Source: Eledone cirrhosa
Taxonomy: Eukaryota
Assembly (NCBI GenBank): GCA_964016885.1
Contig: OZ024743.1
Location: 362,576,001 to 362,640,000 of the forward strand
Length of the DNA: 64,000 nucleotides
Direction of reading: 5' to 3'
Shown here: in pieces, positions 12,363-62,091 of the stretch
Numbering within the stretch: position 1 is the stretch's first letter
How the letters are laid out: each line of letters starts with the position of its first letter
The notes under the pieces: model-generated
What the model was told of the DNA's origin: nothing
Databases searched by the model: none
What the model saw: the letters and a program-made list of their open reading frames with translations, nothing else
Translations under genes and position numbers: made by a program

Positions 12363-12409
<47 letters not shown>

Positions 12410-12615: not shown

Positions 12616-12650
<35 letters not shown>

Positions 12651-12953: not shown

Positions 12954-13010
<57 letters not shown>

Positions 13011-13107: not shown

Positions 13108-13181
<74 letters not shown>

Positions 13182-24619: not shown

Positions 24620-24835
24620 GGGAAGTGGATTGGCAGTATCGGTAGAGCGTCAGACGCCATGCTTTGCATCATAGAGTTATGGCCCTTTACGTTCTGCGTT
24701 CAAATCCCACCGAGGTTATCTTTATCTTTCATCCTTACGGGGTCGATAAAATAAAGCACCAGTAATGCACTGGGGTCGAGTTAATTGACTTTCCCCTCCC
24801 TTCATATTGCTTGCTTTGTACCTAAAGTAGAAACA
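24620..24835 (+). mobile_element. Full-length S1 SINE (long variant)
   Basis: A box TGGCAGTATCGG, B box GTTCAAATCC, S1 body, ATT tail; lies directly after the Tx1 tail. Confidence 0.9.
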
Positions 24836-25189
24836 ATTATTAGTATTATTATTATTGCCTTTAAAAAATTAGCCCAGCATAAGGAGACAAGGGGTGGCTA
24901 TAGTAATAAATAATACAAGCTGTGATATATCAGTAAATATTTTTACCATTGCTGAAGTAGAGCAAAAAACAGTTTTAAAAAACCCAACAAGATAGATAAA
25001 CAAATAAGTAAACAAATTAGTAAATACACAAATAAACAGATAAATAACAATGAAACTGAAACAGTCTTATATAGACTTAATACATACCTAGAGAGTTACA
25101 TACGCGCAAGCAAATATTCGCAAATACGCATATTTTCGTTTACACATTCATGCATACACACACACACATGCACGCACACACACACGCAC

Positions 25190-30024: not shown

Positions 30025-30952
30025 TCTATATATATAAAACTGTGGTTGTCTGTCTGTCTATCGATTTTTGGCACACATCTCCTCTTAGAATCTCTCACGG
30101 AATTGCACTGAAATTGCTATACTTGTACATTGAGCCCTAGCGAAGACATCGGAAAAAAAAAAATTTCAAATTGACCCACCCTATGTGACGAAATCGAATA
30201 TAATGTATCGATTTTTGAGCGTAAGTTATCAGTTATTTCCCTTTGTTCTGTTTACATTGAGCGTCTTACGTAAAAAATTACGCTGGCTTTCTCAGCGTTT
30301 ACGAACAGTTGTCGAGCCAGCAAAATATTGACCTGCAAAATTCATCAGCTCGAACACTAAGCTTCCGTTTTGCTTCATTTCCATTTAAAAGCATTTTAAA
30401 ACAATATTTTTACTTGAAAACAAGTCTATTTAAAGACTACGTAAAACAAGCAAATATTTCGTCGTTAGGCGTGCAGACAGACAGTCGTGCAGACAGACAG
30501 TCGTGCAGAGAGGTGATATACGCGTGCAGACAGATAGTCGTGCAGAGAGGTGATATAGGCGTGCAGACAGACAGTCGTGCAGAGAGGTGATATAGGCGTG
30601 CAGACAGACAGTCGTGCAGAGAGGTGATATAGGCGTGCAGACAGACATAACTGATAATTTGGTTACGCTAATGTTTTTATCTGCGTTGCAGTGTTTACAT
30701 TTTCGATCTTTGTTAATAAATAACCAGTGCAGTTTTTATCCCCAGCATCCTCTTTTGTTATAACATTCGGGTTATCGTTATGTTTTCTTAACTTCATAAG
30801 GCATATTGTTGGTTGAGGGAATATTAATCAAAAACACCACATGCAAGTCTGCACAGTAGACACTACAGTTTTTAAGCCCAAAAAGAAACTTAACAGTGTA
30901 ACTTTAACACAGCTACTGAGCGACCCCGAGCAACGCCGGGCTTTACTGCTAG
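30025..30952 (+). mobile_element. Non-autonomous Helitron
   Basis: A|TCTATATATATAAAA 5' end; CCCGAGCAACGCCGGG hairpin followed by CTAG|T 3' end; inserted in an AT dinucleotide. Confidence 0.85.
30468..30647 (+). repeat. About 37-bp minisatellite inside the Helitron
   Basis: GGCGTGCAGACAGACAGTCGTGCAGAGAGGTGATATA repeated about 4-5 times. Confidence 0.95.
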
Positions 30953-37940: not shown

Positions 37941-37999
37941 TGAGAGAGAAGGGAAGAAAAAACAAAAGAACGGGGAGCTTCTTTTCTCTGTTTCTCTCC

Positions 38000-39482
38000 C
38001 TTGATCTCATGACAGTCCTAAATCCTTTTTTTAATTCCCACTTTAAATCCTAGTATCGCTTCATTTACTCCTCCTTTTCTTGTGTCGTAGGGGCAGGCAA
38101 CATCTACAATCAGGCACAATCATTTTTCCTTGTCAAAAACCACCAGGTCAGGCCTATTGTTTTCTAATTTCTTGTCTGGTTTCAGGATACAATCCTGAAA
38201 TCACATAGCACCTTCACTTGATCGTTTTCTATCACCGACTCTGGCTTATGCTCATTCTACTTCTCAGAATGTGGTAAATTATTTAGTTTTCATAAACGCC
38301 AGTGAATCACCTTTCCTATCATATCATGTCTCCAGCCTTTATAATGAGTCTGGGCTAGGTGTTTACACTCGGATACAATGTGAGCCAGTTTCCTCCCTCT
38401 CTTCACAGATCCGACACAGTGAGCTAGCCGTCCACTTGTCAATTTGGTGGTTCACCCACTTCGTTCTGTGGCTTGCTCTTGTGCAGCCAGTAGTATTCCC
38501 TCTGTACTTTTTTAAGGTCTCTCTTTATAACCAACTCCATATCTGTGCATCTCTGAATTCCATTTTCTTAAATAAGGTACTGTGAAGGGATTTTACATGA
38601 AGGTTGCTCTTCCTCCTTGTTGTTATTTCTTCCTTGGACATCCCCTGGTCTATTGTCTTCTCCTTCAGTACAATTTTGAGCATTGGCTCCCTACTGTCAG
38701 TCACGTATTTGTGTAGGTTGTTTTTTTCCATCTGAACACAGTCTTCTATGCTGATAAGACCTCTTCCAACTTCAGATCTCTTTAAGTAGAGTTTATCAAC
38801 ATCACTCCTCTTGTGGAACATGTTGTAGATAGTCAATAGCTTCCTAGTCTTCCTATCCATTTCTTTTTGTTCAGCAACATTCCATCTCAGAATTCCCGCA
38901 CTGTACCTAATAATAGACACAGCTCGGGAATTCACTGCACTTATGGCATTCCTACTACCTAGATGTGATTTTAATACGCTCCTTACTCTCCTAACGTACT
39001 CAGATCTTATCAATTCCTTCATTTCTTTGTTCTTGATGTCATCTGCCTCCAGAACACCCACATATTTGTATCCTTCTTCAGTGTCAATTTCCTTTATCAT
39101 CTCACCTTTGGTATCTGGATTCCGTTGCTTCTGCTCAATTTACCCCTCTTCATCACCAGGACTCCACACTTATTAATACCAAATTGCATACATATATCAT
39201 TGCTGAAAATACGGACAGTGTCAACAAGCACATCCAACTCCTTCTCACTCTTCCCAAAGAGTTTAAGATCGTCCATGAAGAGGAGGTGGTTGATGGTAAG
39301 CTCTCCTTTTCCCAACTTGTATCCTGCTCCCACTTTTCGCAATATAATGGTCAGGGGTATCATGGCAATGACAAACAGCAGAGGGGACAAACTATCTCCC
39401 TGGAAGATACCTCTCTTGATCTTCACGCCTCCCAAGGATTCTCCGCCCGATGTTAACTCTGTTTCCAGGACTTCATACTTAT
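38000..39482 (-). mobile_element. R4/Dong-clade non-LTR retrotransposon, truncated at both ends
   Basis: RT motifs GIFQGDSLSPLLF, HLLFMDDLKLF, YKYVGVLE; downstream degenerate CCHC and RPD restriction-like endonuclease; 5' end abuts (TAA)n. Confidence 0.88.
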
Positions 39483-39496
39483 GTATTATTATTATT

Positions 39497-39657
39497 AGAG
39501 GGTCGGACGCCATGCTTTCCAGCATAGTTATGTCCCTTTACGATCTGAGTTCAAATCCCGCCGAGGTTAACTTTGCCTTTCATCCTTACGGGGTCGATAA
39601 AATAAAGTACCAGTAATGCACTGGATAATTGCTGGCCTTGTGCCTAAAGTAGAAACA
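39497..39657 (+). mobile_element. S1 SINE between (ATT)n tracts
   Basis: S1 body with ATT repeats on both sides. Confidence 0.95.
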
Positions 39658-39669
39658 ATTATTATTATT

Positions 39670-42633
39670 GGCGACACCTACGTAGTAAATCGTATCATCG
39701 TAAGCTCCGCAAAGGTTTGTTATTTTTCAGTTGTTTAAAATTGCCATTTATGGAAATTTTTTATTGTTAACTGTATATAAGTGCACATACATTGTTATCT
39801 GAAAAGGACACCCAAAAAGATTGGGACCTTGAGCCCAAAATTTAAACTTTTATAATTATCAAACAAAAATTTTGCTTTGTAAAATCATGGACGACTCAGA
39901 GTCACACCTTCCTGACAAACTAACACCTCACACCGACACCACCATTGTAAATATTACTACGTTTGCCAACACTAAAAATATAAGCAATATTTTAAATTTG
40001 TCTCAGGCAGACATTCATTTCCCGCCATTACCAATGACTGCAGGTGTTAAAGCTGCCACCCCCACCACCACCACAGCGACAACAGAAACAAAAGAAAAAA
40101 TAAATTAACTCGTGATATCGAAATGAATTCAACCAAAATGAACTCTTCCACACCGAACACCACTGACGCCACCACCACCACAACTGAAACTAATATTTAC
40201 AATAACAAAAATAACGATAACAACAACAGCAACAATGAAATTAAGAAAACTACCCTGGCTTTTGCGAGAGTAGCAAAATAGTGCGAAGCATTCCAGGTAA
40301 CTCAGGAGGAATTAGAAGAAGCCAAAAAAATGGTAAAGAAAGATGGGTACAGGATCAGCCTCACCCCCCCCCCCCCTCATAATAAAATGGAGCATCGGCG
40401 CCTATGCACCGTGTCTTATCGGACGATTAACATAAAATCGCGCCGAGTGGAACGGGCATCCGAGTCCCAAATCAAAAAAGCTTTGGGACATGTGTGGGCA
40501 AAAAACCCCACATCAGACGTGGGCAGAAATATGGAACCGTGGACATGTTCTTTGAAACACGACAGGAGGCCAGAGAACACTCCATGACCCCATTAAGAAG
40601 TGACAACTTCACACTCGTCCCAAGCTATTGTGGCCAGAGACTTGTGAAGATCAGGGTGACCCACGTTCCACCGGCTATCGAAATTCCCTTGTTAATGGCT
40701 GCCGTCCTCGCCGGCATCGAAGCCAACACCAAGATAATCGAAATAGCGAACGAAAAGCAGGAGAAAAGGTTGAGGCCACCTCTCTTACCCACCCCAGTGA
40801 CTCAACCATCAACACCACCAGCAGCAGAAATGGCAGCAACATCTGTAGCAGCAACAACAGAAGCAACTGTAGCAGCAACAACCCCAGCAACAGTAGGAAA
40901 ACCAACACCACCACCACCCAACGCGCCAGAACTAGCACCAGCGCCTAAACCATCCACCACGCTACAACCAAAACCAACGCCTGTGGAGGATTTTCCACTC
41001 TCCGACCTATCACAACTGGAGACAGATTGTGACGACGAGGAGTGGGAAACGGTATCAGGAAAAAAGAAAAAAAGAAAAAGAAACTAAAAAAGAAAAAATC
41101 CTCTTCCTTCCTCCTCCAAAAACAAAATACAGACGGAAACAAATAAATTATCAAACAAAAAAGTTAGGACAGATATGCCACCATCCACACGAGCATCACC
41201 AACCCCATCACCACAAAGACCAACACCATCACCATCATTAACCCCAACACCAACATCACCAACACCACAAAAGTCACCAAAAAGCGTAACAGAAACAAAC
41301 CCACAACAAACGCAAACAAAACAAAACAACCAAAACGATACACACTACACAGCATTAAATTTGAACAACAACCAATTATTACACTACATGCAACACAACA
41401 CCAGCATCACAGAAAAAGACTACACAACAACCCAAAAGTTCACACCACCTCCACACATACAAATCACTCGCATCACACAGAAAACGTACACGACACTAAA
41501 ACAAAAATTCCCCAAAGACATCGGAGACTTCTGACAAACACTCTCCAGGAGGGGACATCCTTCCTGAGGAGGCCACAAGCAGTGAAAAGGATGGAAAAAC
41601 CGTCCTTCCCCTACGAGAAGTAAGGTAAGTGGTCTTTCCCATCTTTTCCACTCCTTTTCAACATGACCTCACTCAGAATAGGCAGCATAAATGCGCGTGG
41701 CTTGGGGTCGTCATGGAAGCAGGGCCACCTGCTCAACGACCTCAGGTCACTAAACATAGATGTAGTGGCCATCAGCGAGACCAGAATCTCCGAAGCACGG
41801 GCCTTCGCACCGATCTTCGGCGGCTACGATGTGTACGCATCTCCCAGCCGTCCGGGGTCGGGGGGAGAAGTTGCTGTGCTTTTTCGGAGAGGTTTGGATC
41901 TTGCCATACGGGCCATCTTCCTGGACCCAGAAGGTAAGTTGGTGGTGCTGGACGTGACCAGCGGAGACGGGCAAGCTTTCAGGTTAGTGGCCGTCTATGC
42001 CCCGACAGGAGCAGGGCGGCCTGATTTCTTCCGGCGTCTGGAGACCTTTCTTAGAACGTCCCGCTCTTTAGTGTTACTGGGCGACTGGAACGGGATCTTA
42101 GATGCACGCTGGGATTGTGTGGGATTAGTGGTTAGGGAAGGAGGGTGCAAGAGTCTCACCAACCTGCTCAGGCGTTTTGAACTGTCTGACAGGTACCGAA
42201 TGGATTTCCCGAATGTACCAATGTGGACATGGACAAATCGCATAGGGTCATCCAGATCATATCTAGATAGAGTATTTTGTAGGGAAATTGATAGGTCTAG
42301 CATAGGCTGTCCACAATTCAAGATAGTCAGCTACACGGACCACAAATTCGTGATCTGTGTGCTTGACTTAGATAGGCTTCATAGACGAGGACCCGGCTAC
42401 TGGAAGCTAAACGCGTCCTTACCAGCGCGCAAGGCCTACAGAGACCGGATTAGCGAACTAGTTAAGCGGGCGTTGACGGGGGCCATCGTCAACAACAAGT
42501 GGTGGTTTGCTCTGATAAGAGCAATTAGAATAGAGTCCATTAGGTTTAGTAAGGCTTTAGCAATAGAGAAAAATAGAGCAGAGGGAGAATTAGTTAAAAA
42601 ATTAGACGATGTGCTTAGCAAAGGCATCGCGAG
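39670..42633 (+). mobile_element. Tx1-clade LINE family A, copy 1 (5' UTR, disrupted ORF1, endonuclease part of ORF2)
   Basis: Starts GGCG right after (ATT)n; ORF2 from 41663 has APE motifs SINARGL, AISET, GDWN, SYLDR, TDH; breaks off at 42633. Confidence 0.9.
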
Positions 42634-45600
42634 CCACGTTCCACCGGCCATCGAAATTCCCTGGCTAATGGCTGCCGTCCTCGCCGGCATTGATGCCAAC
42701 ACCAAGATAATCGAAATAGCGAACGAAAAGCAGGAGAACTGGTCCGGATCTGGGATGGAGCTCCTGATTTAAGCGGACCAAAAAAGCATTGAGGTGATCC
42801 CAGAGGTAATAGACTTCACTGACGGCAGCCACCTCACCGTAATCGTCGAGGGCAGAAGGCCTAGGTGTGTCGTTTGTGATGAAGGAACCCACCTAAGGGC
42901 TTTCTGCCCTCAGGCTAAAAGGTGAAGCCACCTCTCTTACCCACCCCAGTGACTCAACCATCAACACCACCAGCAGCAGAAATGGCAACAACATCTGTAG
43001 CAGCAACAACAGAAGCAACTGTAACAGCAACAACCCCAGCAACAGTAGCAAAACCACCACCACCACCACCCAACGCGCCAGAACTAGCACCAGCGCCTAA
43101 ACCATCCACCACGCCACAACCAAAACCAACGCCTGTGGAGGATTTTCCACTCCCCGACCTATCGCAACTGGAGACAGATTGTGACGACGAGGAGTGGCAA
43201 ACGGTATCAGGAAAAAAGAAAAAAAGAAAAAAAGAAAAAGAAACCAAAAAAGAAAAAAATCCTCTTCCTTCCCCCTCCAAAAACAAAATACAGAAGGAAA
43301 CAAATAAACTATCAAACAAAAACGTTAGGACAGATATGTCACCATCCACACCAGCATCACCAACCCCATCACCACAAACACCAACACCATCACCAACACC
43401 ACAAAAGTCACCAAAAAGCGAAACAGAAACAAACCCACAACAAACGCAAACAAAACAAAACAACCAAAACGATACACACTACACAGCATTAAATTTGAAC
43501 AACAAACAATTACTACACTACATCAAACACAACACCAGCATCACAGAAAAAGACTACACAACAACCCAAAAGTTCACACCACCTCCACACATACAAATCA
43601 CTCGCATCACACAGAAAACGTACACGACACTAAAACAAAAATTCCCCAAAGACATCGGAGACTTCCGACAAGCACTCTCCAGGAGGATTTATAAGGACAT
43701 CCTTCCGGAGGAAGCCACAAGCAGTGAAAAGGATGGAGAAACCATCCTTCCTCTACGAGAAGTAAGGTAAGTGGTCTTTCCCATCTTTTCCACTCCATTT
43801 CAACATGACCTCACTCAGAATAGGCAGCATAAATGCGCGTGGCTTGGGGTCGTCATGGAAGCAGGGCCACTTGCTCAACGACCTCAGGTCACTAAACATA
43901 GATGTAGTGGCCATCAGCGAGACCAGAATCTCCGAAGCACGGGCATTCGCACCGATCTTCGGCGGCTACGATGTGTACGCATCTTCCAGCCATCCTGGAT
44001 CGGGGGGAGAAGTTGCTGTGCTTTTTCGGAGAGGTTTGAATCTCGCCATACGGGCCATCTTCCTGGACCCAGAAGGTAAATTGGTGGTGCTGGAGGTGAC
44101 CAGCGGAGACGGGCAAGCTTTCAGGCTAGTGGCTGTCTATGCCCCGACAGGAGCAGGGCGGTCTGATTTCTTCCGGCGTCTGGAGACCTTTCTTGGAACG
44201 TCCCGCTCTTTAGTGTTAGTGGGCGACTGGAACTGGATCTTAGATGCACGCTGGGACTGTGTGGGATTAGCGGATAGGGTAGGAGGGTGCAAGAGCCTCA
44301 CCAACCAGCTCAGGCGTTTTGAACTGTCTGACAAGTACCGATTGGATTTCCCGAATGTGCTAATGTGGACATGGACAAATCTTATAGGGTCATCCAGATC
44401 ATATCTAGATAGAGTATTTTGTAGGGAAATAGATAGGTCTAGCATAGGCTGTCCACAATTCAAGATAGTCAGCTACACGGACCACAAATTCGTGATCTGT
44501 GTGCTTGACTTAGATAGGCTTCATAGACGAGGACCCGGCTACTGGAAGCTAAACGCGTCCTTACCAGCGCGCAAGGCCCACAGAGACCGGATTAGCGAAC
44601 TAGTTAAGCGGGCGTTGACGGGGGCCATCGTCAACAACAAGTGGGGGTAGGCTCTGAAAAGAGCAATTAGAATAGAGTCCATTAGCTTTGGTAAGGCTTT
44701 AGCAATAGAGAAAAATAGAGCAGAGGAAGAACTAGTTAGAAAATTAGACGAGGCGCTTAGCAAAGGCATCGCGACCGACGTACTTGCGGCGAAATTGGCC
44801 CTTGACCAATTCTTCAATGCAAAGCACGAAGGCTGCGTTGTCAGAGCTAGGGTGCGTGCTCTCAAACACGAGGGGACGAAAGCCGTTCAATGGGCCCGAG
44901 TGGCGGAGGTGCGTCGTGGCAACAAAGCTACGATCCGGTCTTTGGTGGACCACGACGGGCGCATGCTACTCGATCCCGGGCAAATGTGTGAAGCTTTTCA
45001 GCGACACTTCACACTGCTGTTCGGGGGCAGCGGCGGGGCGGATCGATGGATGAACTTTAGTTTCTGCCTCGACGGACTGCCGCGGCTCTCGGCCACTGAG
45101 GCTGAGTGTTGCGAAAGGCCGATAACAACCGCTGAAGTACGGGAGGCAATGACTGGCTGCACAAGGGATAAATTGCCTGGTTTGGATGGTCTGCCCTATG
45201 AACTTTACGTACAGATGCCAGACTTGTTCGGAGGCCTCTTGGTAGACGTCTACTGCAACTGGCAACAGAACGGGAGAATTCCCAGCTCTGTGAGCCGAGG
45301 AGCTGTGGCGCTGCTGAGAAAGGATCCGAACAAGGGGGATAACAGATAATTTCAGGCCCATAACTCTGCTAAACACAGAGTTCAAGATTTTGGCCAAGGT
45401 GCTAGCAAAAAGGTTGGCGCTTGTCGTTAGTGGTCTGGTGGGAGAGGCGCAGACATGCACCATTCCCGACAGATCCATCCACGACAACCTCCACCTCATG
45501 CGATACATCGTAGAGAGGGTAGCTAGGGAACCTGGCACGTATGGGTCCTTGATCAATTTAGATCAGTCGAAAGCTTTCGATAGGGTCGACCATCGTTACC

Positions 45601-47356
45601 TAGCGGCAGTTCTGAGGGCGGCTGGCTTTGGGCCCGTCTTCAGAGGCTGGATCGTTGCCATGCACAGCGACATCTGCTCTGTAGTGAGAGTGAACGGTCA
45701 CCTTTCGGAACCGTTCAACATCATGCGCTCGGTCCGCCAAGGATGTCCCCTCTCGTCCCTATTGTACGTATTGACTCTCGAGCCATTACTGCACAAATTG
45801 GAGACGTTGAGGAGGATCCCGCACGAACTAGGATGCGGAAGATCCGTGTCAGCATATGCCGACGATGTCACCGTAGTGGTGTCGAACGCCAAACATATTG
45901 AGGCGATCGGCCCTACACTAAGAGAATACGAAGCGGTGACAGGAGCAATGATCAACCAGGAAAAGTCAGTGGGGCTGCAGCTCGGCACCTGGAGAGGCAG
46001 ATCCATGCCGTCCAACAGCGTCGTAGTGCGCTGGACGGACGGACCGGTTAAATTGCTAGGGGTCTGGTTCGGTCCGGACCTTGAGACGGACAAAAACTGG
46101 GACGAGGTGACGAGCAGGGTGGCTTCTCTCACCCAGAAATGGGCGGAGTGGAAGCTATCCCTCAAAGGTCGAGCGGAGGTGGCTAACGCGTACATCGCGT
46201 CCGTCGTCTACTACCGCCTGACCGTCGTACCTTGTCCTAAGCCCCGCTTGACTGCGCTGGAGCGTTTGCTCTTTCGCTTTTTGTGGAAGGGACGCGCTCC
46301 GATAGTCAGGCGGTCCATCTGCTGTCAACAACACCTACGTGGAGGGCTGGGCATGCCGTGGCTGATGATGCGCAGACACGCGCTCAGACTACGACATCTC
46401 CACCTCTTCCTCGACGGTGATTAGGTGTGGTCACCGTTTGCTAGACGCGTCTTTCCCCCTTGACGGAGCTGCAGTCCTGGGTCAAGCGAAGACCGAGAGG
46501 GACCGCTTGGAGACTGGAATGTTTTCAGGTGCTCACAGCCCTCGACCAATCGGGCAATGTGATCGGTGGAAACTCCACCTTGGCGTTCTATAGAGGATTA
46601 GTGGAGGGGAAGAGCGATGACGTACTTGGGGAAACTCTAGGCGTCGACGAAAATCAACTAGCCAATCTCTTCGGAAGAACTTTCGGCATGTCCGAGATGC
46701 GCGCAGGGCGACGAAACCGTCCTGCACGCACTCGTCCAGTGTCCGAGCACTGCTGACTTGTGGGTTTATGTCGAAAACCTGCTGTCACGCGTAGGATGGA
46801 TCCAGCTATCAGCTGAGTCCATCGTGAGGATTGCCCCGCCCTCTTCCTTTAGCCGGGAAGGGCAGGCAGTTTTTATCTGTCTGGTGGCCATGGCGAAAGA
46901 GATAGTATGGTGGACACATTTGAAAAGGCTGAAGACGAGCACTTACCTCTTCGGTGATGTCCTGATTAACTTTTTCAAATTTCATTTGAAAAGGAAAATC
47001 AGGGTAGAAAGGGAAGTGCTCTCTTCCCAGCATTTTGTTGAAAGATGGGTGAGAGAGGCAAGAATGGCCCGAGTGAATCGGCCTACTCTGAGTATGTGTC
47101 TGTAAATTAAAGGTGGAAAACTGGGTGCGGGCACTTTCCCTGGTGGTCAGGGTCACTGTGGCTTTTTAATGGGCTTTCTCCACGAATGTCCCTCGGAAGA
47201 CTCCCTCGTATTGGGGAATTTTTCATTGTTATTTTTTTGTTACATCCTCTGTTTTTGTTTTTTACACGCAGAAATGCCCATTTGTACCGTCCTGTATTGT
47301 CATGTACTGTCCTTGATGTCTACTTTACGTAAACCCTTGTGGTTAATAAAGAAAGC
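42634..47356 (+). mobile_element. Tx1-clade LINE family A, copy 2 (mid-ORF1 to 3' end), inactivated
   Basis: ORF1 zinc knuckle CVVCDEGTHLRAFC; ORF2 from 43805 with APE and RT (QGCPLS, YADD), stops, frameshifts and a deletion near 46686; AATAAA plus (ATT)n tail. Confidence 0.95.
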
Positions 47357-47369
47357 ATTATTATTATTA

Positions 47370-49302
47370 CAGCTGAATTTATCTTGCTTTATGTTCATAC
47401 GAGTTATCACCAAGTCACAACCAGTGACCTCAAGAGACAACAAGGTCCGCCATGTTCAAGAAAGAACATACATACTCACACATGCATCTTTAGTGTTTAG
47501 ACTTGTGATGTACTTATATTGACAGAATCTTCCTTAATATATGGGCAGTTCCCATTAGTACTATCTTTTGTATTTCTCCTATACGCGGGTTTCCTGGGAT
47601 TTGCGATAAGTAATCATTAGACCCCTTAGGTATCATTCCTAGAGCGCCTACAACCACTGGTATTGTTTTAGTTCTCAATTTCCACATTTTTCCAATTTCT
47701 ATCTCCAGGTCCTTATACTTGCTCAATTTTTCAAATGTTTTTATAGATACATTCTTGTCTATTGGAACGGACATATCAATTAGCAGGCATGCCCTCTTTT
47801 TAAAGTCCTTCAATATTATATCAGGTCTTTTTGCATCTATTTTTCGGTCTGTTTGGATGCTAAAGTTCCGCAAGATTGAGATGTGATCTTTTTCAAGTAT
47901 GGGAGGTGGTTGATGCTCCCACCAATTCTTTTGATGGGGCAAGTCAAAATGCTTACACATTATCCAATGTATGTATTGTGCAGCTCTGTCATGCCTGTTT
48001 AGGTATTCGGTTGGAGCTATAGGACTGCACATTGAAATTATATGGTCAATGGTCTCTGGTTGTTTTTTGAATACACGGCATAATGGGCTGCACCCATTTT
48101 TTATTATGTTGGCTTGGTAATTTTTTGTTGGTAGACACTGATCTTGTGCTGATATAATCAGTCCTTCAGTCTCCGATTTCAGTCCAGAGGATGCCAACCA
48201 CTGATGGGTTAAAGTTTTGTCAACATCAGGATTGTTAGCTCGCTCTGGGTATTTTCCATACAGAGGCTTTTCTTGCCATTTCTTAGCCAGTTTCTGTAGC
48301 AGTTCTTTCTTTGCAGTTACTTTTACCTGCTTTGCTTTTTCTGTGTTTTCCATTTCAGCAGTAAATGGGACTTCTGAAATTTGTAGTCCATTACTGTATC
48401 TTTGTGCATCTTTTGTAATGGAGTATGATCTTTTGATGCTTTCGTGTTTCAAAACGAGTTTGATCATCCAATCATGTGATTCCCTTAGATATGTAGATAA
48501 TCCAATTGTTGCAGTTTTCAACGCAATGTCTAACTGGATTAACCCACGTCCTCCTTCTTTCCTAGGGAGATATATTCTATCTGTATCTGCCTACGGATCT
48601 CTGTGCTTGACCAGTTGATGACATTGTAACTGTAGGTTACTACTAGTATGGCAAGCGTGTTTATGGCATCGATCCTATTCCTTGCATTCAATTCCGTTCT
48701 TAAGATTGCTCCTACTCTGCGGTAACATTCCTTCCTTATCCTTTCCCTCATTGTCGAGTGCTTGATTCCGTCTCCTTCACAAACACCTAGATATTTGTAA
48801 GTTTTTTCTTGATCAAGTTCTCTTATCACGTTCCCCCGATCAAGATTAATGTCTGAACTCTTCAGCAGCTTTCCTCTGGTGAACGTTGCTTTAGCGCATT
48901 TATCTAGTCCAAACTCCATTTTAATGTCATCACTGAACTGCTCCACAGTGGATAATAGCCCTTGTAATTGTTCATCATTTTTTGCAAATAGTTTCAGGTC
49001 ATCCATGTAGAACAGGTGATTAATGGTTTTGTCATACACTTTATATCCATGTTTTGTTTCATTGAGCATTTTACTTAATGGTATAAGTGCGATGCAGAAT
49101 AAAAGCGGTGATAAAGAGTCACCCTGAAAAATTCCACAATTAATATTAACTTCTCCAGCTTCCAGTGATTTTGTTTCACTATTCAAAAGGAGTGTCGTTT
49201 TCCATGTCTTCATACTGAATGACAAAAACCTCCTGACAACGGGGGATATTTTGAAAATCTCTAAACATTTTTCAATCCAACTGTGTGGCAAACTATCGAA
49301 TG
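47370..49302 (-). mobile_element. R4/Dong-clade non-LTR retrotransposon, 5'-truncated, intact 3' end
   Basis: FDSLPHSW, GIFQGDSLSP, FYMDD; CRV..ETIDHIISMC, RHD, RPDI..IDMSVP..KLSKY restriction-like endonuclease; (TAA)n at both ends. Confidence 0.93.
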
Positions 49303-49313
49303 TTATTATTATT

Positions 49314-49472
49314 AGGGTCGGACGTCATGCTTTCCAGCATAGTTACGTCCCTTTACGATCTGAGTTCAAATCCCGCCGAGGTTGACTTTGCCTTTCATCC
49401 TTACGGGGTCGATAAAATAAAGTACCAGTAATGCACTGGGTAATTGCTGGCCTTGTGCCTAAAGTAGAAACA
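49314..49472 (+). mobile_element. S1 SINE between (ATT)n tracts
   Basis: S1 body with ATT repeats on both sides. Confidence 0.95.
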
Positions 49473-49724
49473 ATTATTATTATTATTATTATTATTATTG
49501 GCCGCACATGTGTGAAGACAGACAAGTCTGCGGGGGAAAAGATTCGTAGCTTTAAGCTGTTTTAAAGTGTCTTTTTTTTGTATTTTCTTGTCATTAACGA
49601 AACTTAAGGTACACATCTTGATTTAAAGAGAGGGATACCTCTCAATATTCGGGCTTTAAGCCCGAATATTCAGATTTATTTTTAAAATCTTCGGAAAAAA
49701 TCGCTTCCCCATCAAAAGAAAATT

Positions 49725-51712
49725 ATGGAAATTTTCGACCTTGAAACGGTAAACAACGTTCAGGTCAAAAGTTTAAAGGCAGCCACTGCAGATTTCACCA
49801 CGACTACGACGGCTACAGTCATGCCTGTCATCCACTCTACTGAATGTGAAGGCAAAACTAAAAAGCTACCATCACAACCTTCTGCCATAGCAGCAGTATC
49901 ATCTGAAAACGACATCACCACCACCGCCACCACCACCACCACCACAACAACAACAACTCAGAGCAATAACGACAAAAACACCGACAGCTTCAATGTAAAC
50001 AAGGATGGCGGTGGCAACAGCAAGAATGACAACAACAACAATAAGAGCATCAGAAACACCACATTTGCTGCAGCAGCAGCAGCAAAAACAAAGCGCTTAT
50101 TGAATATCGATATTGATATTAGCGATAAAGACGAACAGTTGGCCAAAGCGTGGAGGCTAATTAAACGGGAGAAGTCCTGGGCAAACCTGGCCATCCCGGA
50201 CGAGGCAATAGCGGCCTTGCAAAGGAGGACGGTGCTCTTTCGATGTATTTCGGTGTAGACACGAAAAGTGGAACTTGCGAGCCAAGCAGAGGTAGAGGCT
50301 GCTTTGGAGTACATCGGAAGTAACATAGAGTACAAAGCAAGAGGCAAACAGTTCGGTACCATCTCGGTACTGTTCAAATCCGAGGCCCTCGCTATTAAGC
50401 ACTCGGTGATCCCCTGCAGAACGGAACGCATTATCATGCATCCGTCCTATATGGGTAAAAGGACAGTGAAGGTACGCATTCCCAGCATCCCACCAGGAAT
50501 GAACATATGGTGGCTGCTGGGATGCGTAATCGAGGAGGGGACAGACACCATCCTCCTGGACATCAAAAGGACAGAGAGAGAAGACTGGTCCGGAATGGAT
50601 TTGGAGATTCTTCTCCAAATGAAACGGGAGGATATAAATAACATCCCAGATTTTGCCCGCCTGCAGGACGGGACAACAATCCAACTAATGATTGACGGAA
50701 GAAGGCCACGCTGCTTCGTTTGCGGGGAAGCCACGCATCTTCAAGCCTTCTGCCCTCAGCGCAAAAATGCAGGGGGTCGCAAACCTCCTTTGTTGCCAAC
50801 GCCAGTGTCAGCACGGAAAGCTGCACCACCACCACCACCAAAAACAACATCAACAAAAACACGGACACCAACATCAAAAGCAGCCGGATCACCACCAACA
50901 CCAAAACCAATCCAAGGAGAAAACGAGGAAAGCTCTCCCACTACCCCTACCCCCCCCCCCCCCCCAACCATATACATAGACAAAAAAAAAATAAACGCAC
51001 ACACAGACACAAAGACACTCACAGACACAGACCCTTTGTCTTCCAGCAGCGAAGATGAAGGAAAACCCAAAAGTGCAAAAAAACAGAGAAAACTCACAAA
51101 AAAAAAAAGCCCCTACAAAACACAAAAACACACACAACAAAAAATACAGACACCACTAACGCAGACACTTCCCCAATACCATCAGCACCATCAGCAACAT
51201 CGACACCACCTCCACAATCCCCGAAACGCAAACAACCTAAACAAACACAAGTACAAATAAACACACAAATACCTGAAATTGCAGACACCACACCTACAAC
51301 AAACATAGACATACCCGAAACAACACCACCAAAACCATCGCCACCACCTTCATCAAAACGAAAACAAATAAAACCACACCAACAAAATGTTAAAAACTTC
51401 GTGCTTGTCAGAAGGGCCAACGATAAACTGATGGCCCTCTTAGCGCGAAGCGAGGACATTCAAACAGAGGGGGAGATTTTTGAAATGAGCACATTTTGCG
51501 TGCCAGAAGATTTGCTTCTGGTTCGAATGTCACTCAATTCCTTCAAAGAAATTCGAGAGAGCTTTCCTCAAGACGTGGGAAACCCGAATGTGAAACCCAC
51601 ATCAAGACTTTTAAAGGGGTTCCCAAAAGAAACCCCACCAACCATGGAGGTCGAACCACCCGACCTTCACAAGACCCGGGAGGTAAGTAAACCTTCCCTC
51701 TCTCTCTCTTAG
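49725..51712 (+). pseudogene. Tx1 ORF1 (gag-like, CCHC zinc knuckle)
   Basis: CFVCGEATHLQAFC; in-frame TAG at 50256 and apparent frameshift(s) in the homopolymer-rich segment. Confidence 0.85.
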
Positions 51713-51721
51713 CTTACCAAT

Positions 51722-54700
51722 ATGGCCATATTAAGAGTAGGAAGTTTAAATGTTCGCGGCCTGGGGTCACCCTGGAAGCAGGGTCGCCTGCTCAACGACC
51801 TCCGGTCGCTGGAAATGGATGTGATTGCCGTAAGCGAGACCAGAATTTCCGACACGCGTGCACTAGCCCCCATTTTCGACGACTATCAGATCTTCGCATC
51901 TGTTAGCAGGCTGGGAATGGGGGGTGGGGTGGCAGTGCTGTTTAGGAAAGGACTGGATCTCGAGGTAAGGTCGATCTTCCGGGACCCGGACGGTAAGTTG
52001 GTGGTCTTGGATGTGAGCAGTAGCGAAGGTGGTGCCTTTAGACTGCTGGCCGCCTACGCCCCTACAGGGGCCGGACGACCTGACTTCTTTAGGCGCCTGG
52101 AGACCTTTCTGGGTACGTCTCGCCCTTTACTGTTAGCGGGGGACTGGAATGGCATCTTAGACGCACGCTGGGATTGTGTGGGAGTAGCCGATAGGAGCGG
52201 GGGGGGGGGGGTGCAAAAGCCTCAAGCACCTACTCAGCCAGTTCCAACTGTCCGACAGGTATCGACTAGATTTCCCCAATGTGCCAGTATGGACATGGAC
52301 CAACCGAATGGGATCATCTAGATCGTATATAGACAGAATCTTCATTAGGAAAATAGATAGAAATAGTGTGGGCTGTCCACTTTTTAAAACGGTCGCCTAT
52401 TCAGATCACAAATTTGTGATCTGTACGGTCGACCTAAATAAAACGCGGAGGTTAGGACCGGGTTACTGGAAGCTGAACATGTCATTTCCGGCACGTAAGG
52501 CTTACAGGGACCGAGTCAATAAGTTAGTTAAGCAAAAGTTGACAGGGGGGATCATCAACAACAGATGGTGGGGGGCTCTCTAAAGAGAGATTAGAGTAAC
52601 TTCGATAGAGTTCAGCAAAGAACTAGCGTTAGAGAAAAATAGAAAGGAGGGGGAGCTGGTAGATAAGTTAGACGAGGCTATTTGTAGTGGCATCGCAACT
52701 GACGTGCTAGCGGCGAGAATGGCATTAGACCATTTCTTCAATGCCAAACACGAAGGTTGCATTGTCAGAGCTAAGGCGCGTGCGCTGAGAAACGAGCGAA
52801 CTAAAGCTGTTCGATGGGCCCGCGTGGCGGAGGCGCAGCGTGGTAATAAAACCACAATTCGGTCTTTGGCGGACCGAGACGGATACGAGATAAGCGATTC
52901 CAAGCGGATGTGTGAGGCCTTTCGCCAGCACTTTGCTCGGTTGTTCGGGGAGAGTGGCGAGTCAGAGAGAGTAGCGGATTTCAGTCCCTACCTTGACGGC
53001 TTGCCGCGCATCTCGACGGTCGACGCTGAGCGCTGCGAAAGGCCGATTACTTCAGCCGAAATTCAGGACGCCCTTGTCGGCTGCATGAGGCGCAAGTCAC
53101 CCGGCTTGGATGGCCTGCCCTACGAGCTTTACGTAAATATGCCAGACTTGTTCTCCGAACTCCTCGAAGCACTCTACTGTAACTGGCAGCAGAATGGGAG
53201 TATTCCCAGTTCTGTGAGCAGGGGAGTAGTGACGCTGATAAGGAAAGACGAGAACAAGAGGGATACATTAGACAACTTCAGGCCCATAACTCTGCTCAAC
53301 ACAGAGTTTAAGATTTTGGCCAAGGTGTTAGCAAAGAGATTGGCGCTTGTCATCGAGGATTTGGTTGGGGAGGCGCAAACTTGCGCAATCCAAGCCAGGT
53401 CCATACACGACAATCTCGACCTCATGCGATACATCATAGACAGGGTAGGGTGTAAACCTGGCTTCGGTGGGGCACTGATCAATTTAGATCAATCGAAAGC
53501 ATTCGATAGGGTCGACCATCGGTATCTGGAGTTTGTCCTCAAAGCAGCTGGCTTCGGCCCTGTCTTTAGAGGCTGGATCGTTGCAATGCACAGTGGCACA
53601 CGCTCGGTGGTCAAGGTTAATGGCCACCTCTCGGAACCATTTCGGCTCTCCCGATCGGTCCGTCAAGGGTGCCCTCTCTCTTCCCTTCTGTACGTATTGA
53701 CTCTCGAGCCTTTACTGCGGAAGCTGGAGCTGTTGCAGGGCATCCCGCTCGAACCGGGACGTGGAAAGGCGGTGTCAGCTTATGCGGACGACATCACCGT
53801 GATGGTGTCGAACACCTCAGAAATCGAGGTGGTCGGCACCTTATTGAAGGAATATGAAAGGTTGACAGGAGCCAAACTTAACCCGGAAAAGTCGGTGGGC
53901 TTGCAGCTCGGAACCTGGAGAGGCAAGCCCATGCCGTCCAACAGCGTCGTGGGGCGCTGGACGGACGGACCAGTAAAGTTGCTCGGGGTTTGGTTCGGAC
54001 CAGACCTCCAGGTGGAAAAGAATTGGGACGAGGTAACGAGCAGAGTAGCCAGTCTCACCCAAAAATGGGCTGGGAGGAAGCTATCACTGAAAGGTCGCGC
54101 GGAGGTGGCGAATGCGTACATCGCGTCCGTCATCTATTACCGCCTAACCGTCGTGCCTTGCCCCCGTCCGCGTCTCGTCAAGTTGGAACAGCTCCTCTTC
54201 AAATTCTTGTGGAGGGGACAAGTTCCGTTGGTGAGGCGGTCCATCTGCTGCCAGCACCCTCTACGCGGAGGGCTGGGCATGCCGTGGCTAATGATGCGCA
54301 GACATGCGTTGAGGCTGCGACATCTCCAAATATTCTGCCTCAATGGTGAACAGGTGTGGTCGCCGTTTATCAGACGGGCCTTTCCGCAGCTCATTTCTTT
54401 GACTGAGCTGCAGTCCTGGGTCAAGAAGAGACCGAGACTGGGTGACTGGCACCTGGAATGTTGCCAGGCACTCACTGCCCTCTACCAAGCGGGCAATGCG
54501 ATCAGTGGAACTTCCACTCTCGAGTTCTATAGAGGATTAGTGGTGGGCAAGTGCGATGACGCACTCGGAGAAGCTTTGGGCCTCGACGAAGTCGAACTGA
54601 CCAGTCTGTACCGGAGGACTTTTGAGCCGGGGACGATGGACAATTTCCAGAAATCCCTCGCTTGGCAGTGCTACCGGGGGGCACTGCCGGTTCGGGATAA

Positions 54701-55151
54701 ACTCTACAGGCACGGAAGTGCTGTCAGACGGACCTGCCCAAGATGCGCACAGAACGACGAAACCGTTCTGCACGCACTTGTCCAATGTCCGTGCATTACT
54801 GACTTGTGGAGTTATGTCGAACAGCTACTGTCGCGTGTAGAACGAATCCGGCTATCGGCCGAGTCCATAGTGAAGATCGAGCCGCCACCTTCCTTAGGTC
54901 AGGAAGAGCAGGACATTTTCCTCTGTCTGGTGGCAGTTGCGAAAGAGATTATATGGTGGACCAGGTTGAAAGGACTAAAGACAGACACTTTTCTCTTCGG
55001 CCAATCCCTCATCAACTTCTTCAAGTTTCACCTGGAAAGGAGGGTGAGGGTGGAGAGAGAAGTGCTTCCCCCCAGTACATTTGCTAAAAGGTGGGTGAAT
55101 GTGGCGAGAATGGCTCGTGTGAATGGGCCTACTCTGACCATGCGCCTATAG
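51722..55151 (+). pseudogene. Tx1 ORF2 (APE endonuclease, RT, C-terminal CCHC)
   Basis: SLNVRGL, AGDWN, SDH; RPITLLN, KAFDRV, QGCPLS, YADD; CPRCAQNDETVLHALVQC; frameshift in poly-G near 52200 and TAA at 52581. Confidence 0.95.
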
Positions 55152-55424
55152 GCTGGCTAACTTGAGGAGAGGGGTGCTCTCCTGGGTGCTCTAGAAGCGC
55201 AGGGTGGTTCAGGATTGGTGGGGTACCCGAATCACCCCAGAGTCGTCCACCCCCTATCGGGGAATTTATTTTGTTATATTTTGCATAGTTTATTTAAATT
55301 TTATATTTTCATTGTTAAATTAGTCTTGCCATTGTGCACTTTTACTCGACCTTATTGTAAACCCCCACTGTCCCTGTCTTTGTATTGTCCCCTACATGTC
55401 GGCCCTTGTGGCTAATAAATGAAA

Positions 55425-55479
<55 letters not shown>

Positions 55480-56685
55480 GGGCAATGTGATCGGTGGAAA
55501 CTCCACCTTGGCGTTCTATAGAGCATTAGTGGAGGGGAAGAGCGACGACGTACTTCTAGGCGTCGACAATAATCAACTAACCAATCTCTTCGGAAGAACT
55601 TTCGGGCCGGGGACTATGGACAATTTCCAGAAATCCCTGGCCTGGCAGTGCTACCGAGGAGCTTTTCCAGTTCGGGATAAACTCTACAGGCACAGAAGTT
55701 CCGTCAGCCGGGCATGTCCGAGATGCGCACAGGGCGACGAAACCGTCCTGCATACACTCGTCCAGTGTCCGAGCATTGCTGACTTGTGGGTTTATGTCGA
55801 ACACCTTGGCGTTCTATAGACGGCTAGTGTGGGAAAGAGCGACGACGTCCTAGGGGAGACTCTGGGCGTTGACAAAGATCAACTAGCCAATCTCTTCGAG
55901 AGAACTTTCAGGTCGGGGCCCATGGACATCTTCCAGAAATCCCTGGCCTGGCAGTGCTACCAGGGAGCTTTACCGTTTCAGGATAAACTCTACAAGCAAG
56001 GAAGTGCTGTCAGCTGGGCCTGTTCGAGGGCGACGAAACCGTCCTGTACGCACTCGTCCAGTGTCCGAGCATTGCTGACTTGTGCGTTTATGTCGAACAC
56101 CTGCTGTCACGTGGGTCGGATCCGGCTATCAGCTCAGTCCATCGTGAGGATTTCCCCACCGCCTTCCTTTATCCGGGAAGAGCAGGCAGCTTTTATCTGC
56201 CTGGTGGCCATGGCGAAAGAGGTCGTGTGGTGGATGCGTTTGAAAGGGCTGAAGACGAGTACTTACCTCTTCAGTGATGCCCTGATTAACTTTTTCAAAT
56301 TGCTTTTGAAAAGGAAAATCAGGGTGGAAAAAGGAAGTGCTCTCTTCCCAGCAATTTGTTGAAAGATGGGTGAAAGAGGCAAGCATAGCCCGCGTGAATG
56401 GGCCTGCTCTGAGTATGCGCATGTAGATAGGAAGTGGAGAACTGGGAGAGGGCACTTGCCCTGTTGGTCAGGGTCACCGTGGCTTTTTTAATGGGCTTTC
56501 TCCACGAGTGTCTCTCGAAAGTCTCCCCTCTCTTGGGGAATATTCCTTTGTTTCTTTTTAATGTCATTTACTTTGTTTTTGTTTTTTCTTTACACGCAGA
56601 AATGCCGATTTGTACCGTCCTGTACTGTCTTGTGCTGTCCTTAATGTTATACTTTATGTCAACCTTTGCGGTTAATAAAGAAACC
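55480..56685 (+). mobile_element. Two joined 3' fragments of Tx1 family A
   Basis: 55480-55805 and about 55803-56685 repeat the ORF2 C-terminal region of 46553-47356; ends AATAAAGAAACC(ATT)n. Confidence 0.9.
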
Positions 56686-56717
56686 ATTATTATTATAATT
56701 ATAATTATTATTATTAT

Positions 56718-56923
56718 TTGGCAGTATCGGTAGAGGGTCGGACGCCATTCTTTGCAGCAAGAGTAACGGCCCTTTACGGTTTGAATTCAAATCCCGCCGA
56801 GGTTAACTTTGCCTTTCATCCTTACCGGGTCGATAAAATAAAGCACCTGTAACGTACTGGGGTCGATTTAATCGACTTTCTTCTCCCCGCTAAATTACTG
56901 GCCTTGTGCCTATACTAGAAATC
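56718..56923 (+). mobile_element. S1 SINE (long variant) in the Tx1 tail
   Basis: A and B boxes, S1 body; tail TATACTAGAAATCATTA duplicated. Confidence 0.9.
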
Positions 56924-56949
56924 ATTATTATACTAGAAATCATTAGTAT

Positions 56950-57570
56950 TTTATTAAACCAGTCAGGCTTTTGAAATATTTAGATAAGGAAACATTCTGG
57001 CCCTTGTTTGTCATTTAGTTGACAGTACTTTTCGGAGGATATGAGCAGTACCTAAAAGCACCGAATACTGGTGTATATTTATTTTGTACTTAACATCTAG
57101 CATTTTCAAATCGCTGTGAATTTCTTTTGGTATTGATCTAAGTACTTCTATAATTGTCCAGCTTCTCAACTCGCTTTAATTTCAAATTGCTATCATCTGA
57201 GCATGCCGCATCAATAACAGAGCATTTACGTATTATTATTTTCTCAACAACTATGTAGATCCTCCGATAAGTGATTTCTGTCTACTTGTATGCAAACATC
57301 CCATACGATTTGTTAGTATTTTTCTTGCCATACTTCTTGCGTTGCAACTAGTTCAGGTTAAGACATGCTTTTTTTATACTCGTTCTGGGTCCCACACTAT
57401 ACCCGTCAACTATATGCAAGACGTTCTCAACATGCTCTCCACACAATCTACACCTGTTAGAGACTGCCATCATATAAATATCTCTTTTGATCGAAAGTTT
57501 ATACTTGAGCAGCCATAATTAGGCTTCGTCTCTCTTTTTTTAAGTTCTCCTTATTCAGTAATTTCTAAGA
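56950..57570 (-). mobile_element. Old R4/Dong endonuclease-domain remnant
   Basis: Minus strand CRLCGEHVENVLHIV..DVCIQVDR..CSVIDAACSDD..EKLDNY. Confidence 0.7.
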
Positions 57571-57699
57571 CTATTTAGGTTTTGCAGTTCTGGTTTCCCA
57601 AGCAATACATTACTTTCAATTTCATTGATCTTTTCTTTTTCCACTCCCACTTTATATTCTTCTTTTCCCTCAATAGTTTCACACTAATAATTTTTATTA

Positions 57700-59635
57700 G
57701 GGAGGGAGAGTCTAGCGAAAAATACCTGCCCTCAGCAGATGAAGTGGCATATATGCTGAGCCAGTGTATGAAGGACAAAGCGCCAGGACTGGATGATCTA
57801 CTCTATGAATTCTACTCTTACATGCCAGACATGTTCGCTACAGTTTTGCAGCAGACTGGGAACAACCCCAGTCGTGTAAGCCGGGCGTAATGAAACTATT
57901 AAGAAAGGTCCGAACAAGAGTTCCTTGATAGAAAAACTTCATGCCCTTAACCAAACTGAACACAAAGCTGAAGGTATTGGCAAAGTGGTTGGCCCTTGTC
58001 ATTGGTAGTATTGTCAGAGGTCCACAGATCTGTGTAATCCCTGGCAGATCTATCGATGATAACGTCTGCTTCATAAAATAGATTGTGGAACGGGTGGGAC
58101 GTAACCACGACTTTTGTGGGACACTGCTCAATTTAGATCAGTCAAATGCATTTGACATAGACCATCGCTAACCGTGAGCTATCCCAAGAGCACCAGGTTT
58201 CGGCCCCGTTTTCAGAAGCTGGATCACCACGTTTCATAGCGACAGCTTTTCGATGGTTAAATTGAACGGCCACTAAGAACCTTTCCATATCGAGCGCTCG
58301 ATACGTCATTGATATCCTATCCCGTTTTTATGTATTAGATTTAGAGCTTTTGCTGTGGAGAATGGACATCTTGAGAGGAGTTCGGCTAGAAATTATTTAG
58401 AGGTGAGTCGAGTCTGCGTATGCAGATGACGTCACAGTTATGATGTCAGACACTTCAGATATAGAAGCAGTTGACGCCATACCGGAAGAATACCAGAAGG
58501 TTACTGGAGCCTCTGTTAACCAGGATGAGGCCTGAAACTCACTACGAGGAGAGGTAGGATCATGCCAGCCAGCGGGCTGTCGGACAGTCGGCTGTCAACT
58601 CGGTCAAAGTGCTTGGAGTTTGGTTTGGACCGGACTTCCAGGCAGGCAAGAAAGAAATGGGGACAGAAAAAGCTGTCCTTCAAAGGCCGGACAGAGGGGG
58701 AAAATTCCTACATTGCTTCGGTGGTATACTACCACCTCTTGGTCGTACTATGTCCAAAAAACGCATTACGAGATTGTAATGCATGCCCTTCCACTTTATG
58801 TGGAAGGTATACGTCCCACTGGTCAGAAAATCAATCTGTTACCAGCATAAACTCCATGGTAACATCGGGATGTCATCGCTTTTGTTGCGTCGACAGGCAT
58901 TACAGCTAACGCTAAGCACCGCAACGACGATGTCAACGAAAGCGAAGCGCAACCAATATGGGTGCCATTCGTGTGAATGTCTTCCCGTAGGTTGTCTTCT
59001 TTACTCAGCTACAGTCGTGGGTCAAGCGCAGACAAAGGTTGAGTAGCTGGAATTTAGAGTTCTGCCAGGCGCTCACGGTACTTTACCAGCTGAGCATACC
59101 GATAGGATGTCAGAAAACAACAATTACGTTATATAGAGGTTTTGTGAAAAGTATGAGCGACGATGGCCTAGTAACAGCTCTGGACAGGCTTTTCTGTAGT
59201 ACATTCCAACTGAGGATCATTTCCCAAATCCTCCACATGACGGCATTAAGGCGGAGTACTTTCAGTTCGAGACAAGCTCTAAAGGAATGGAAATGCCAAT
59301 AGCCGGGATTGTCCGAGATGCATACGAGGCAATGAAACCGTCATGCATGTCATCACCCATTGCCTATTCTTTGCAGAATCGTGGGCTTGTGTCGAACAAC
59401 TGCTATCATGTGTAGGAGAGATCCAGTTATCAGCCGAACCTATAGTGAAAACTGAACCGTCACCTTCCTCTCCAGTTAAGCCCTTATAAATGTCTTCAAG
59501 TTACACTTGAAGAGGTACTGTCTTACACTTGAGAAGGAGGTACTGTCTTCTAGTGTGTTTTATGAAAGATGGTTGAGATCATCGAGATTGACTATTATTT
59601 TCTAAGTAGGAAGAAGGAAACTAGGAGAGGGCATT
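57700..59635 (+). mobile_element. Old, degenerate Tx1-clade ORF2 (RT to 3' end)
   Basis: KAPGLDDLLYEFY, LNLDQSNAFD, AYADDVTV, KLSFKGR, colinear with family A and B ORF2. Confidence 0.85.
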
Positions 59636-59659
59636 TCAATAGTTGTTCCAGCTCTTTAC

Positions 59660-59785
59660 ATTCTGGGTTAAAATCCTGCTGAGATCGACTTTGCCTTCCG
59701 ATGTCCATAAAATAAGTACTAGTCAAATATCATCGACTTACCATTGTACGCCAAATTTTCTGGTCTTGTGCCAGAATTAAAAATC
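59660..59785 (+). mobile_element. Diverged S1-like SINE
   Basis: GACTTTGCCTT..ATAAAATAAGTACTAG..TGGTCTTGTGCC. Confidence 0.65.
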
Positions 59786-61950: not shown

Positions 61951-62091
61951 GAGAGTATTGAAGTTTGCTTGAAGCATTGTGGAACAATAAGTAAATATCT
62001 TTAAGTCGTTTGGAAGCCTCGACAATGCAAATGGGTAAATCTCCGGGTAACAAGGTCCGGTGGTGGAGAGAGAGATGTAAGTGGGTGTACG

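Follow-up and report, generated by a model that had tools for sequence, protein, structure and literature searches.

We have analysed a 64,000-nucleotide stretch of the Eledone cirrhosa genome (contig OZ024743.1, 362,576,001-362,640,000; hereafter the window), which carries an array of retroelements of three classes, Tx1-type elements, Dong-type elements as well as SINEs (short interspersed nuclear elements), at positions 38,011-59,785. This array is one of many polarised stacks in which Tx1 and SINE copies lie on the (ATT)n strand and Dong copies on the (AAT)n strand, probably with first nicks on opposite strands, a SINE that borrows the Tx1 machinery and, at Tx1 and SINE insertions, target-site duplications of 9-22 bp starting with ATTAT. 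Four parts of this account are direct observations: the repeats in the flanks, the polarity of the elements, the duplications at SINE copies and the 3′ tail that SINE and Tx1 have in common.

Self-comparison, Pfam searches and translation confirmed that the array consists of 13 pieces, with all Tx1 and SINE pieces on the plus strand and all Dong pieces on the minus strand, so that the strand-polarised order described in the initial annotation of the window was borne out. If three families had chosen their strands freely, the chance of this polarity would be about 0.001-0.004. The Dong pieces had been listed under a single name; their common strand stands, whereas they belong to three different families (no mutual blastn match, tblastx about 30-60%). 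The array begins with a Dong-like family A fragment (38011-39483), truncated at both the 5′ and the 3′ end, which carries the end of the reverse transcriptase (RT), a zinc knuckle and an RPD..D endonuclease motif; at this left edge Dong-A is without its own 3′ end and no AAT is present. A spacer (ATT)4 (39484-39495), a SINE with a slightly truncated head (39496-39657, 3′ hairpin at 39633-39645) and a second (ATT)4 (39658-39669) precede two Tx1-A copies, which are 93.7% identical and joined by short microhomology. Copy 1 (39670-42639) has the true 5′ end, a broken open reading frame 1 (ORF1) and the apurinic/apyrimidinic-type endonuclease (APE) domain and stops before the RT; copy 2 (42631-47356) is 5′-truncated within ORF1 and comprises APE, RT and the 3′ untranslated region (UTR), with the hairpin at 47332-47344. 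A further (ATT)4 (47357-47368) separates it tail-to-tail from Dong-like family B (47369-49302), which is 5′-truncated with an intact 3′ end and carries the RT, a CCHC knuckle and a restriction-like endonuclease motif. An ATT spacer of about 4 units (49303-49313), a SINE (49314-49472) and (ATT)9 (49473-49499) lead to a Tx1-B element (49500-55426), full length with frameshifts, in which ORF1 with CX2CX4HX4C, APE, RT, zf-RVT and the hairpin (55401-55413) were found. Behind (ATT)17 (55427-55479) lie a Tx1-A 3′ fragment truncated at both ends (55480-55806), a Tx1-A-like 3′ end joined to it by microhomology (55802-56685), an imperfect (ATT)11 (56686-56718) and a SINE of a longer, older subfamily (56719-56922). 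The right end is formed by the 3′ end of an old Dong-like family C (56958-57700), an old Tx1 with about 67% identity to the present families (57701-59560) and a decayed old SINE (59585-59785), whose local score of 87 compares with a shuffled maximum of 35 and with 17 on the reverse strand.

Most junctions had been described as ATT tracts. This applies to seven of the 12, which are clear tracts of 4-17 units (four of these about 12 bp), and one more is a degenerate short ATT tract. The claim did not hold at 57700 and 59560, in the old right end, where the tract is decayed or absent, nor at the joins 42631 and 55802 inside Tx1-A, which show microhomology without ATT. Both microhomology joins probably arose through deletion at a later time or through attachment of a 5′ end to a copy lying upstream. 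The Tx1-A/Tx1-A join at 42,631 was found once genome-wide, which ruled out an amplified subfamily, and only two joins resembling it were present in the other fetched loci.

The pieces of the array differ in age. Identity to the nearest fetched copy was 99% for Tx1-B, 98% for Dong-B and 96-97% for Tx1-A, compared with 92% for the Tx1-A fragments, 67% for the old Tx1, 90-92% for Dong-A and no such copy for Dong-C, the values for the last two being possibly too low since neither was used as a genome query. The youngest families are central and the oldest lie at the edges. The array is highly repetitive and the repeat is absent at two joins, as a misassembly or a segmental duplication might produce, but such an origin is hardly probable at all: the tandem Tx1-A copies are 6% different, the families range from 67 to 99% identity to their relatives, junctions of these types recur by the hundred in the genome and the junction at 57,700 is bridged by contigs from three runs of one sample (possibly the source sample). 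The contigs placed on 37960-57900 (from one sample and one restriction-site-associated DNA sequencing run) come mostly from other copies. No contig covers the Tx1-A/Tx1-A join (42604-42627), which says nothing for or against that join.

The repeat at the element ends was surveyed throughout the 3.0-Gb assembly using five element ends, for each of which the best 30 of about 40 scored matches were taken and the window copy was dropped, giving 29 loci per end and 145 ends. An (ATT)n flank was present at 29/29 5′ ends of Tx1-A and 28/29 of Tx1-B and at 25/29 and 28/29 of their 3′ ends, respectively. An (AAT)n flank was found at 28 of the 29 3′ ends of Dong-B, the family to which the Dong counts refer, families A and C having no separate counts. 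Random 30-mers scored as such a flank in 1.8-2.0% of cases. Full-length Tx1 5′ ends were preceded by (ATT)n in 57 of 58 cases. Upstream of 5′-truncated Tx1 copies, ATT was found in 22/41 and AAT in none, and upstream of 5′-truncated Dong-B copies, AAT was found in 21/32 and ATT in one; the truncated copies without an upstream repeat include internal deletions. Because the repeat precedes internally truncated copies too, on the strand of the copy itself, the repeat upstream of Tx1 and Dong is the target and not a part of the 5′ UTR.

Other recurrent sequences were noticed in the flanks. The 3′ flanks of loci L043, L065, L068, L045, L053 and L060 contain more sequences starting directly after (ATT)n, some of them followed by diverged Tx1 matches, and these are probably additional ATT-targeting Tx1 families. 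In the 3′ flanks of L058, L071, L077 and L082, a recurrent element end with poly(A) plus AAT lies on the Dong strand and is possibly one more family using the tract.

The polarity of the array was found genome-wide as well. An annotated neighbour within 150 bp was present at 105 of the 145 ends, and the rule that Tx1 runs with SINE and against Dong was kept in 100 of these 105 (in 41/44 among cross-class neighbours). The five exceptions comprise three sites at which the tract itself changes strand (ATT to AAT), the other two being annotation errors. Exact-pattern counts in the genome gave 223,443 SINE tails (control 3,698), i.e. about 220,000 copies, and 3,177 Dong-B tails. Tail-to-tail pairs of Tx1 and Dong-B numbered 233 against about 0.3 under uniform expectation (in which Tx1 density was taken from 6 matches per Mb), those of SINE and Dong-B 169 against about 3.6, and those of Tx1 and SINE 36 against about 20. 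A Tx1 tail lay opposite 7.3% of the Dong-B tails versus 0.016% of the SINE tails, which is about 450-fold per partner copy. Among the listed pairs, the spacers of cross-class pairs were almost all pure (ATT)n, and those of SINE/SINE and Tx1/SINE pairs were mostly mixed or strand-flipping.

In an unselected sample of 100 evenly spaced 10-kb stretches (1 Mb), Tx1 covered 3.3%, SINE 2.2% and Dong 1.5% of the sequence. Here, 30 of the 32 adjacent SINE pairs were on the same strand compared with 21 of the 40 distant ones, Dong and SINE were opposite in 4/4 cases, and of the two Dong/Tx1 cases one was opposite and one the same. Five loci, picked for their array-like look from 20 anchored stretches, reach arrays of 9.3-17.4 kb with the same polarity, from which a single reversed sub-block and a single inverted 5′ piece of Tx1 depart; the array in the window is the longest among those seen. 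The genome-wide count of orientation and adjacency, proposed in the initial annotation, hence showed a non-random relative orientation, and its suggestion that an (ATT/AAT)n target is common to an APE-type and a restriction-like element, which use it in opposite directions, is upheld by the flanks, the neighbours and the tail-to-tail pairs. The array locus is not unique, similar arrays being dispersed genome-wide. It was also suggested to be a piRNA (Piwi-interacting RNA)-cluster-like trap, selected for holding transposon fragments. The 22 kb of dense transposons of mixed age would fit a trap, but comparable arrays are scattered over the genome, the occupancy of both strands is fully predicted by the target strand and transposons are not dense in the remainder of the window when libraries built from these elements are used, and so this explanation found no support and is very improbable.

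Among 211 SINE copies whose 3′ end is intact, an informative target duplication of 9-22 bp was present in 71, as opposed to 1.9% in shuffled pairings; ten further copies had shorter duplications. The duplications started with ATTAT in 55/71 cases, and in 63/71 no extra base stood between the SINE end and the duplication. A stricter SINE set showed the duplication in 15/26 copies. For Tx1, interrupted-repeat duplications of 12-18 bp were found in 4/58 copies (L057, L164, L165 and L170). Random SINE ends carried two or fewer ATT units in 64/70 cases, and tracts after Tx1 were not longer than those before it (3′ and 5′ medians 10 and 7 for Tx1-B, p 0.17, and 6 and 15 for Tx1-A). Since SINE and Tx1 duplications exist, SINE-end tracts are short and post-Tx1 tracts are not longer, the evidence favours duplication over a long tail as the source of the tracts for these two classes.

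According to the initial annotation, each insertion regenerates the microsatellite by its own tail, a long (ATT)n or (AAT)n which would serve as the landing pad of the next insertion. The repeat does follow nearly all 3′ ends, the end of Dong-A is a degenerate but conserved AAT/AAC sequence, and in a few Tx1-B copies a short 5′ tract is combined with a long 3′ one. All three measurements just described, namely the lack of an added base before the SINE duplications, the short SINE-end tracts and the Tx1 medians, speak against such pads. Long element-encoded tails were rejected as the chief source of tracts on the basis of SINE duplications and tract lengths, and the tail-made pad as a whole is improbable.

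The 3′ ends of Tx1-A, Tx1-B and SINE share a hairpin with a stem of 3-4 bp and an identical five-base loop, located 16-17 nt before ATT, and their stems differ through two-sided changes. In an alignment of seven window rows, 85.7% of the cells were paired and two-sided changes occurred in three of the four pairs; none of the 500 shuffles matched the covariation score, and slid controls scored lower. The motif was not found in Dong-A and Dong-B ends. The SINE also shares with Tx1 the strand and an overlapping size and start of the duplication. Because of the shared hairpin tail, strand and duplication signature, Tx1 is the probable motor of the SINE, which is likely to be its passenger and not a third independent player. 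It is conceivable that targeting operates as proposed and the SINE is moved by another long interspersed nuclear element (LINE), e.g. of RTE or CR1, its likeness to Tx1 being convergence on AT-rich sites. This would agree with the shortness of the shared tail (about 25 nt), with the looser SINE target and with the further LINE clades listed as active in octopus in Table 1 of PMC13282606. However, the same loop, the co-varying stem and the equal spacing to ATT (in a comparison of Tx1-A, Tx1-B, Dong-A and Dong-B tails), as well as the same strand and the overlapping duplications, make this alternative an unlikely one. The SINE has A/B-box-like motifs as judged by eye, and ARAGORN and Rfam gave no relevant match to it. 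Full-length Dong-B copies (L159, 3875-3925; also L155, L156 and L160) contain in their 5′ UTR a fossil 3′ end of a SINE, which includes the hairpin, is in the sense orientation and lies at an ATTAT-rich spot.

The coding sequences are in agreement with two different kinds of elements. Tx1-A and Tx1-B have a separate ORF1 carrying a CCHC knuckle CX2CX4HX4C, and an ORF2 with an N-terminal APE domain (PF03372), an RT (PF00078) and a C-terminal zf-RVT (PF13966). Their closest solved relative is human L1 ORF2p, and the Tx1 RT is nearer to L1 (human L1 ORF2p, E about 1e-51 over amino acids 17-868) than to R2 (1e-20). Among eight Tx1 homologs, one was named (Transposon TX1 149 kDa protein, 32% identity). 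Of the relatives from metagenomes (80 loci, mostly 23-35% identical), eight were inspected, and these had no ATT flanks and no such hairpin. Dong-B has a single 1216-amino-acid open frame (fetched locus L159) with RT, CCHC and a restriction-like PD..D..K motif. It matches R2 proteins over amino acids 449-1161, to the C-terminus, and no match to the APE domain PF03372 was found in it by Pfam; all its homologs are unnamed or hypothetical. From the familiar motif pattern and the target, we take the Dong-type elements to belong to the R4/Dong clade. The names Tx1 (as against L1) and R4/Dong (as against HERO/NeSL) should be regarded as provisional at the clade level. At Dong 5′ junctions (L008, L022, L168, L155 and L160), the first 15-30 bases of Dong-A are duplicated and (AAG)n additions stand ahead of full-length Dong-B. 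Dong-B and Tx1-B copies with an inverted 5′ part, as twin priming predicts, were seen in L002, L167 and L168.

In target-primed reverse transcription, an element that reads ATT in the sense orientation is primed from a nick in the AAT strand, and the reverse applies to Dong. The Tx1 APE endonuclease would accordingly nick the AAT strand first and leave a primer ending with ATAAT, which could pair with an RNA ending with AUU; if the RNA terminates with up to a few AUU bases, these might pair with the primer and add no length. The restriction-like endonuclease of Dong would first nick the ATT strand, and the opposite orientation of the elements would result from these first nicks on opposite strands. 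Insertion of Tx1 or SINE is predicted to duplicate 9-22 bp of target starting with ATTAT and to place a target on either side of the new copy, and the element end followed by ATTAT would restore the preferred site. With two targets left and the site rebuilt at the 3′ end, stacks would grow from inside. Replication slippage probably lengthens the tracts later, and the Dong tract may be renewed by duplication or by an AAT-like tail.

Several points weigh against the proposed system of polarised insertion. The nicking by the enzymes and the RNA steps are predictions from sequence. The anchored loci are top matches, some of which overlap or are duplicates, and are therefore not fully independent. 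No duplication was present in 88/211 SINE copies, and 42 others, lying in pure repeat, were uninformative. The scripted class of Tx1 duplications (14/58 vs 12.8% in shuffled pairings) is an unclean test, which leaves the four convincing cases only, and Dong showed no excess (5/54 vs 8.7% shuffled). Some Tx1 copies have a short tract upstream and a long one downstream, so that repeats may be gained by slippage at the priming step. Tx1 is stricter in its target than the SINE, of whose full heads 9 of 19 are preceded by at least two ATT units, and SINE/SINE tail-to-tail pairs are in 3.8-fold excess (470 vs about 125 under uniform expectation). The hairpin has 3-4 bp only, and its folding energy does not surpass that of shuffled sequences (z -0.47 to +0.41); its structure was defined on the tested rows, and the seven rows amount to about three independent families.

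Outside the array, a pile-up of two Tx1 copies and a SINE had been reported at 24.0-24.85 kb. It turned out to be a single collinear 3′ end of an old Tx1 (24158-24588, plus strand) and a SINE (24620-24836, plus strand) preceded by an imperfect ATT tract, and two Tx1 copies were thus rejected. A 5′-truncated SINE on the plus strand (23702-23846) is flanked by identical 17-bp target-site duplications (23702-23718 and 23830-23846) starting with ATTAT. The window also contains an inverted duplication at 6901-14014, whose arms measure about 3 kb, are 99% complementary once microsatellites are left aside and enclose a 1-kb spacer; it is either a true palindrome or an assembly artefact. A Penelope-like element (62005-63501) has a 498-amino-acid frame with an RT and a weak GIY-YIG match, and a tandem repeat with 4.4 copies of a 37-bp unit lies at 30470-30647.

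Several parts of the system have known counterparts, which are compared here on the basis of parts of the papers cited. Bombyx TRAS1 and SART1 (R1 clade) are likewise two retrotransposon families of the non-LTR type (LTR, long terminal repeat) inserting into one simple repeat in opposite directions, as set by the endonuclease, and the end of their RNA may pair with the strand that was nicked (PMC7265360). They are, however, both APE-type relatives confined to telomeric (TTAGG)n, whereas here the microsatellite is dispersed and is used by an APE-type and a restriction-like element, along with a SINE as the probable passenger. Dong, DongAg and DongBg (R4 clade) also target TAA microsatellites and have a single ORF with an RT and a C-terminal restriction-like endonuclease (PMC3812793), but here at least three distinct families have this target in common with Tx1-type elements lying on the opposite strand. 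Kibi, Koshi and crocodilian Tx1 families are two-ORF APE-type elements with the microsatellite targets (TC)n, (TTC)n, (TTCC)n and (TTTC)n (PMC4494074), in contrast to the AT-only (ATT)n which is already a target of Dong. Mobilisation of a SINE by Tx1 was inferred for crocodilian SINEU and Tx1-Mar from a shared target preference, with a duplication between tandem copies (PMC4494074); their target is a Mariner transposon and the SINEU head is derived from small nuclear RNA, unlike the A/B-box-like motifs, the copy number and the shared 3′ hairpin described here. A conserved loop and compensatory changes in the 3′ stem are known from the stringent LINE/SINE pairs of eel UnaL2, a monocot L1 lineage and bivalve CR1/L2 SINEs (PMC3747384, PMC4824008), but the partner here is Tx1-type and target-specific and the stem has just 3-4 bp. 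Target-specific clades are treated in PMC4640811. The SINE, Dong-R4 and L1-Tx1 content of octopus genomes, and an octopus-specific SINE expansion for which the parts considered name no partner, have been described (PMC13282606, PMC8967140), and the parts of PMC11481361 and PMC4758252 considered report no Tx1 partner for mollusc SINEs. We found in the literature no ATT-targeting Tx1, no pair of APE and restriction-like endonucleases on one microsatellite and no Tx1-SINE pair of octopus or other Tx1-SINE tail pair, although Repbase or Dfam entries may already note such targets. Dong on TAA, Tx1 elements on other microsatellites, opposite-direction pairs and a Tx1-mobilised SINE were thus known already, and what appears to be new is their combination on (ATT)n. 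The chances are evenly balanced that an undescribed (ATT)n-targeting Tx1 lineage converged on the microsatellite of Dong from the opposite strand and drives a dominant SINE of this genome via a tiny 3′ hairpin, so that a three-party system builds the arrays and has placed about 220,000 SINE copies at ATTAT sites.

The proposed insertion rule is a single and testable one for three element classes, which make up about 7% of an unselected megabase, and direct assays are possible for the specificity of the target, for the choice of strand and for dependence on the hairpin. It carries a warning for repeat consensus libraries, as ATT 'tails' can be duplicated target. The two elements would be a natural instance in which endonucleases of unrelated fold have arrived convergently at one target, each from a different strand, and Tx1 is named as the likely motor of the SINE expansion.

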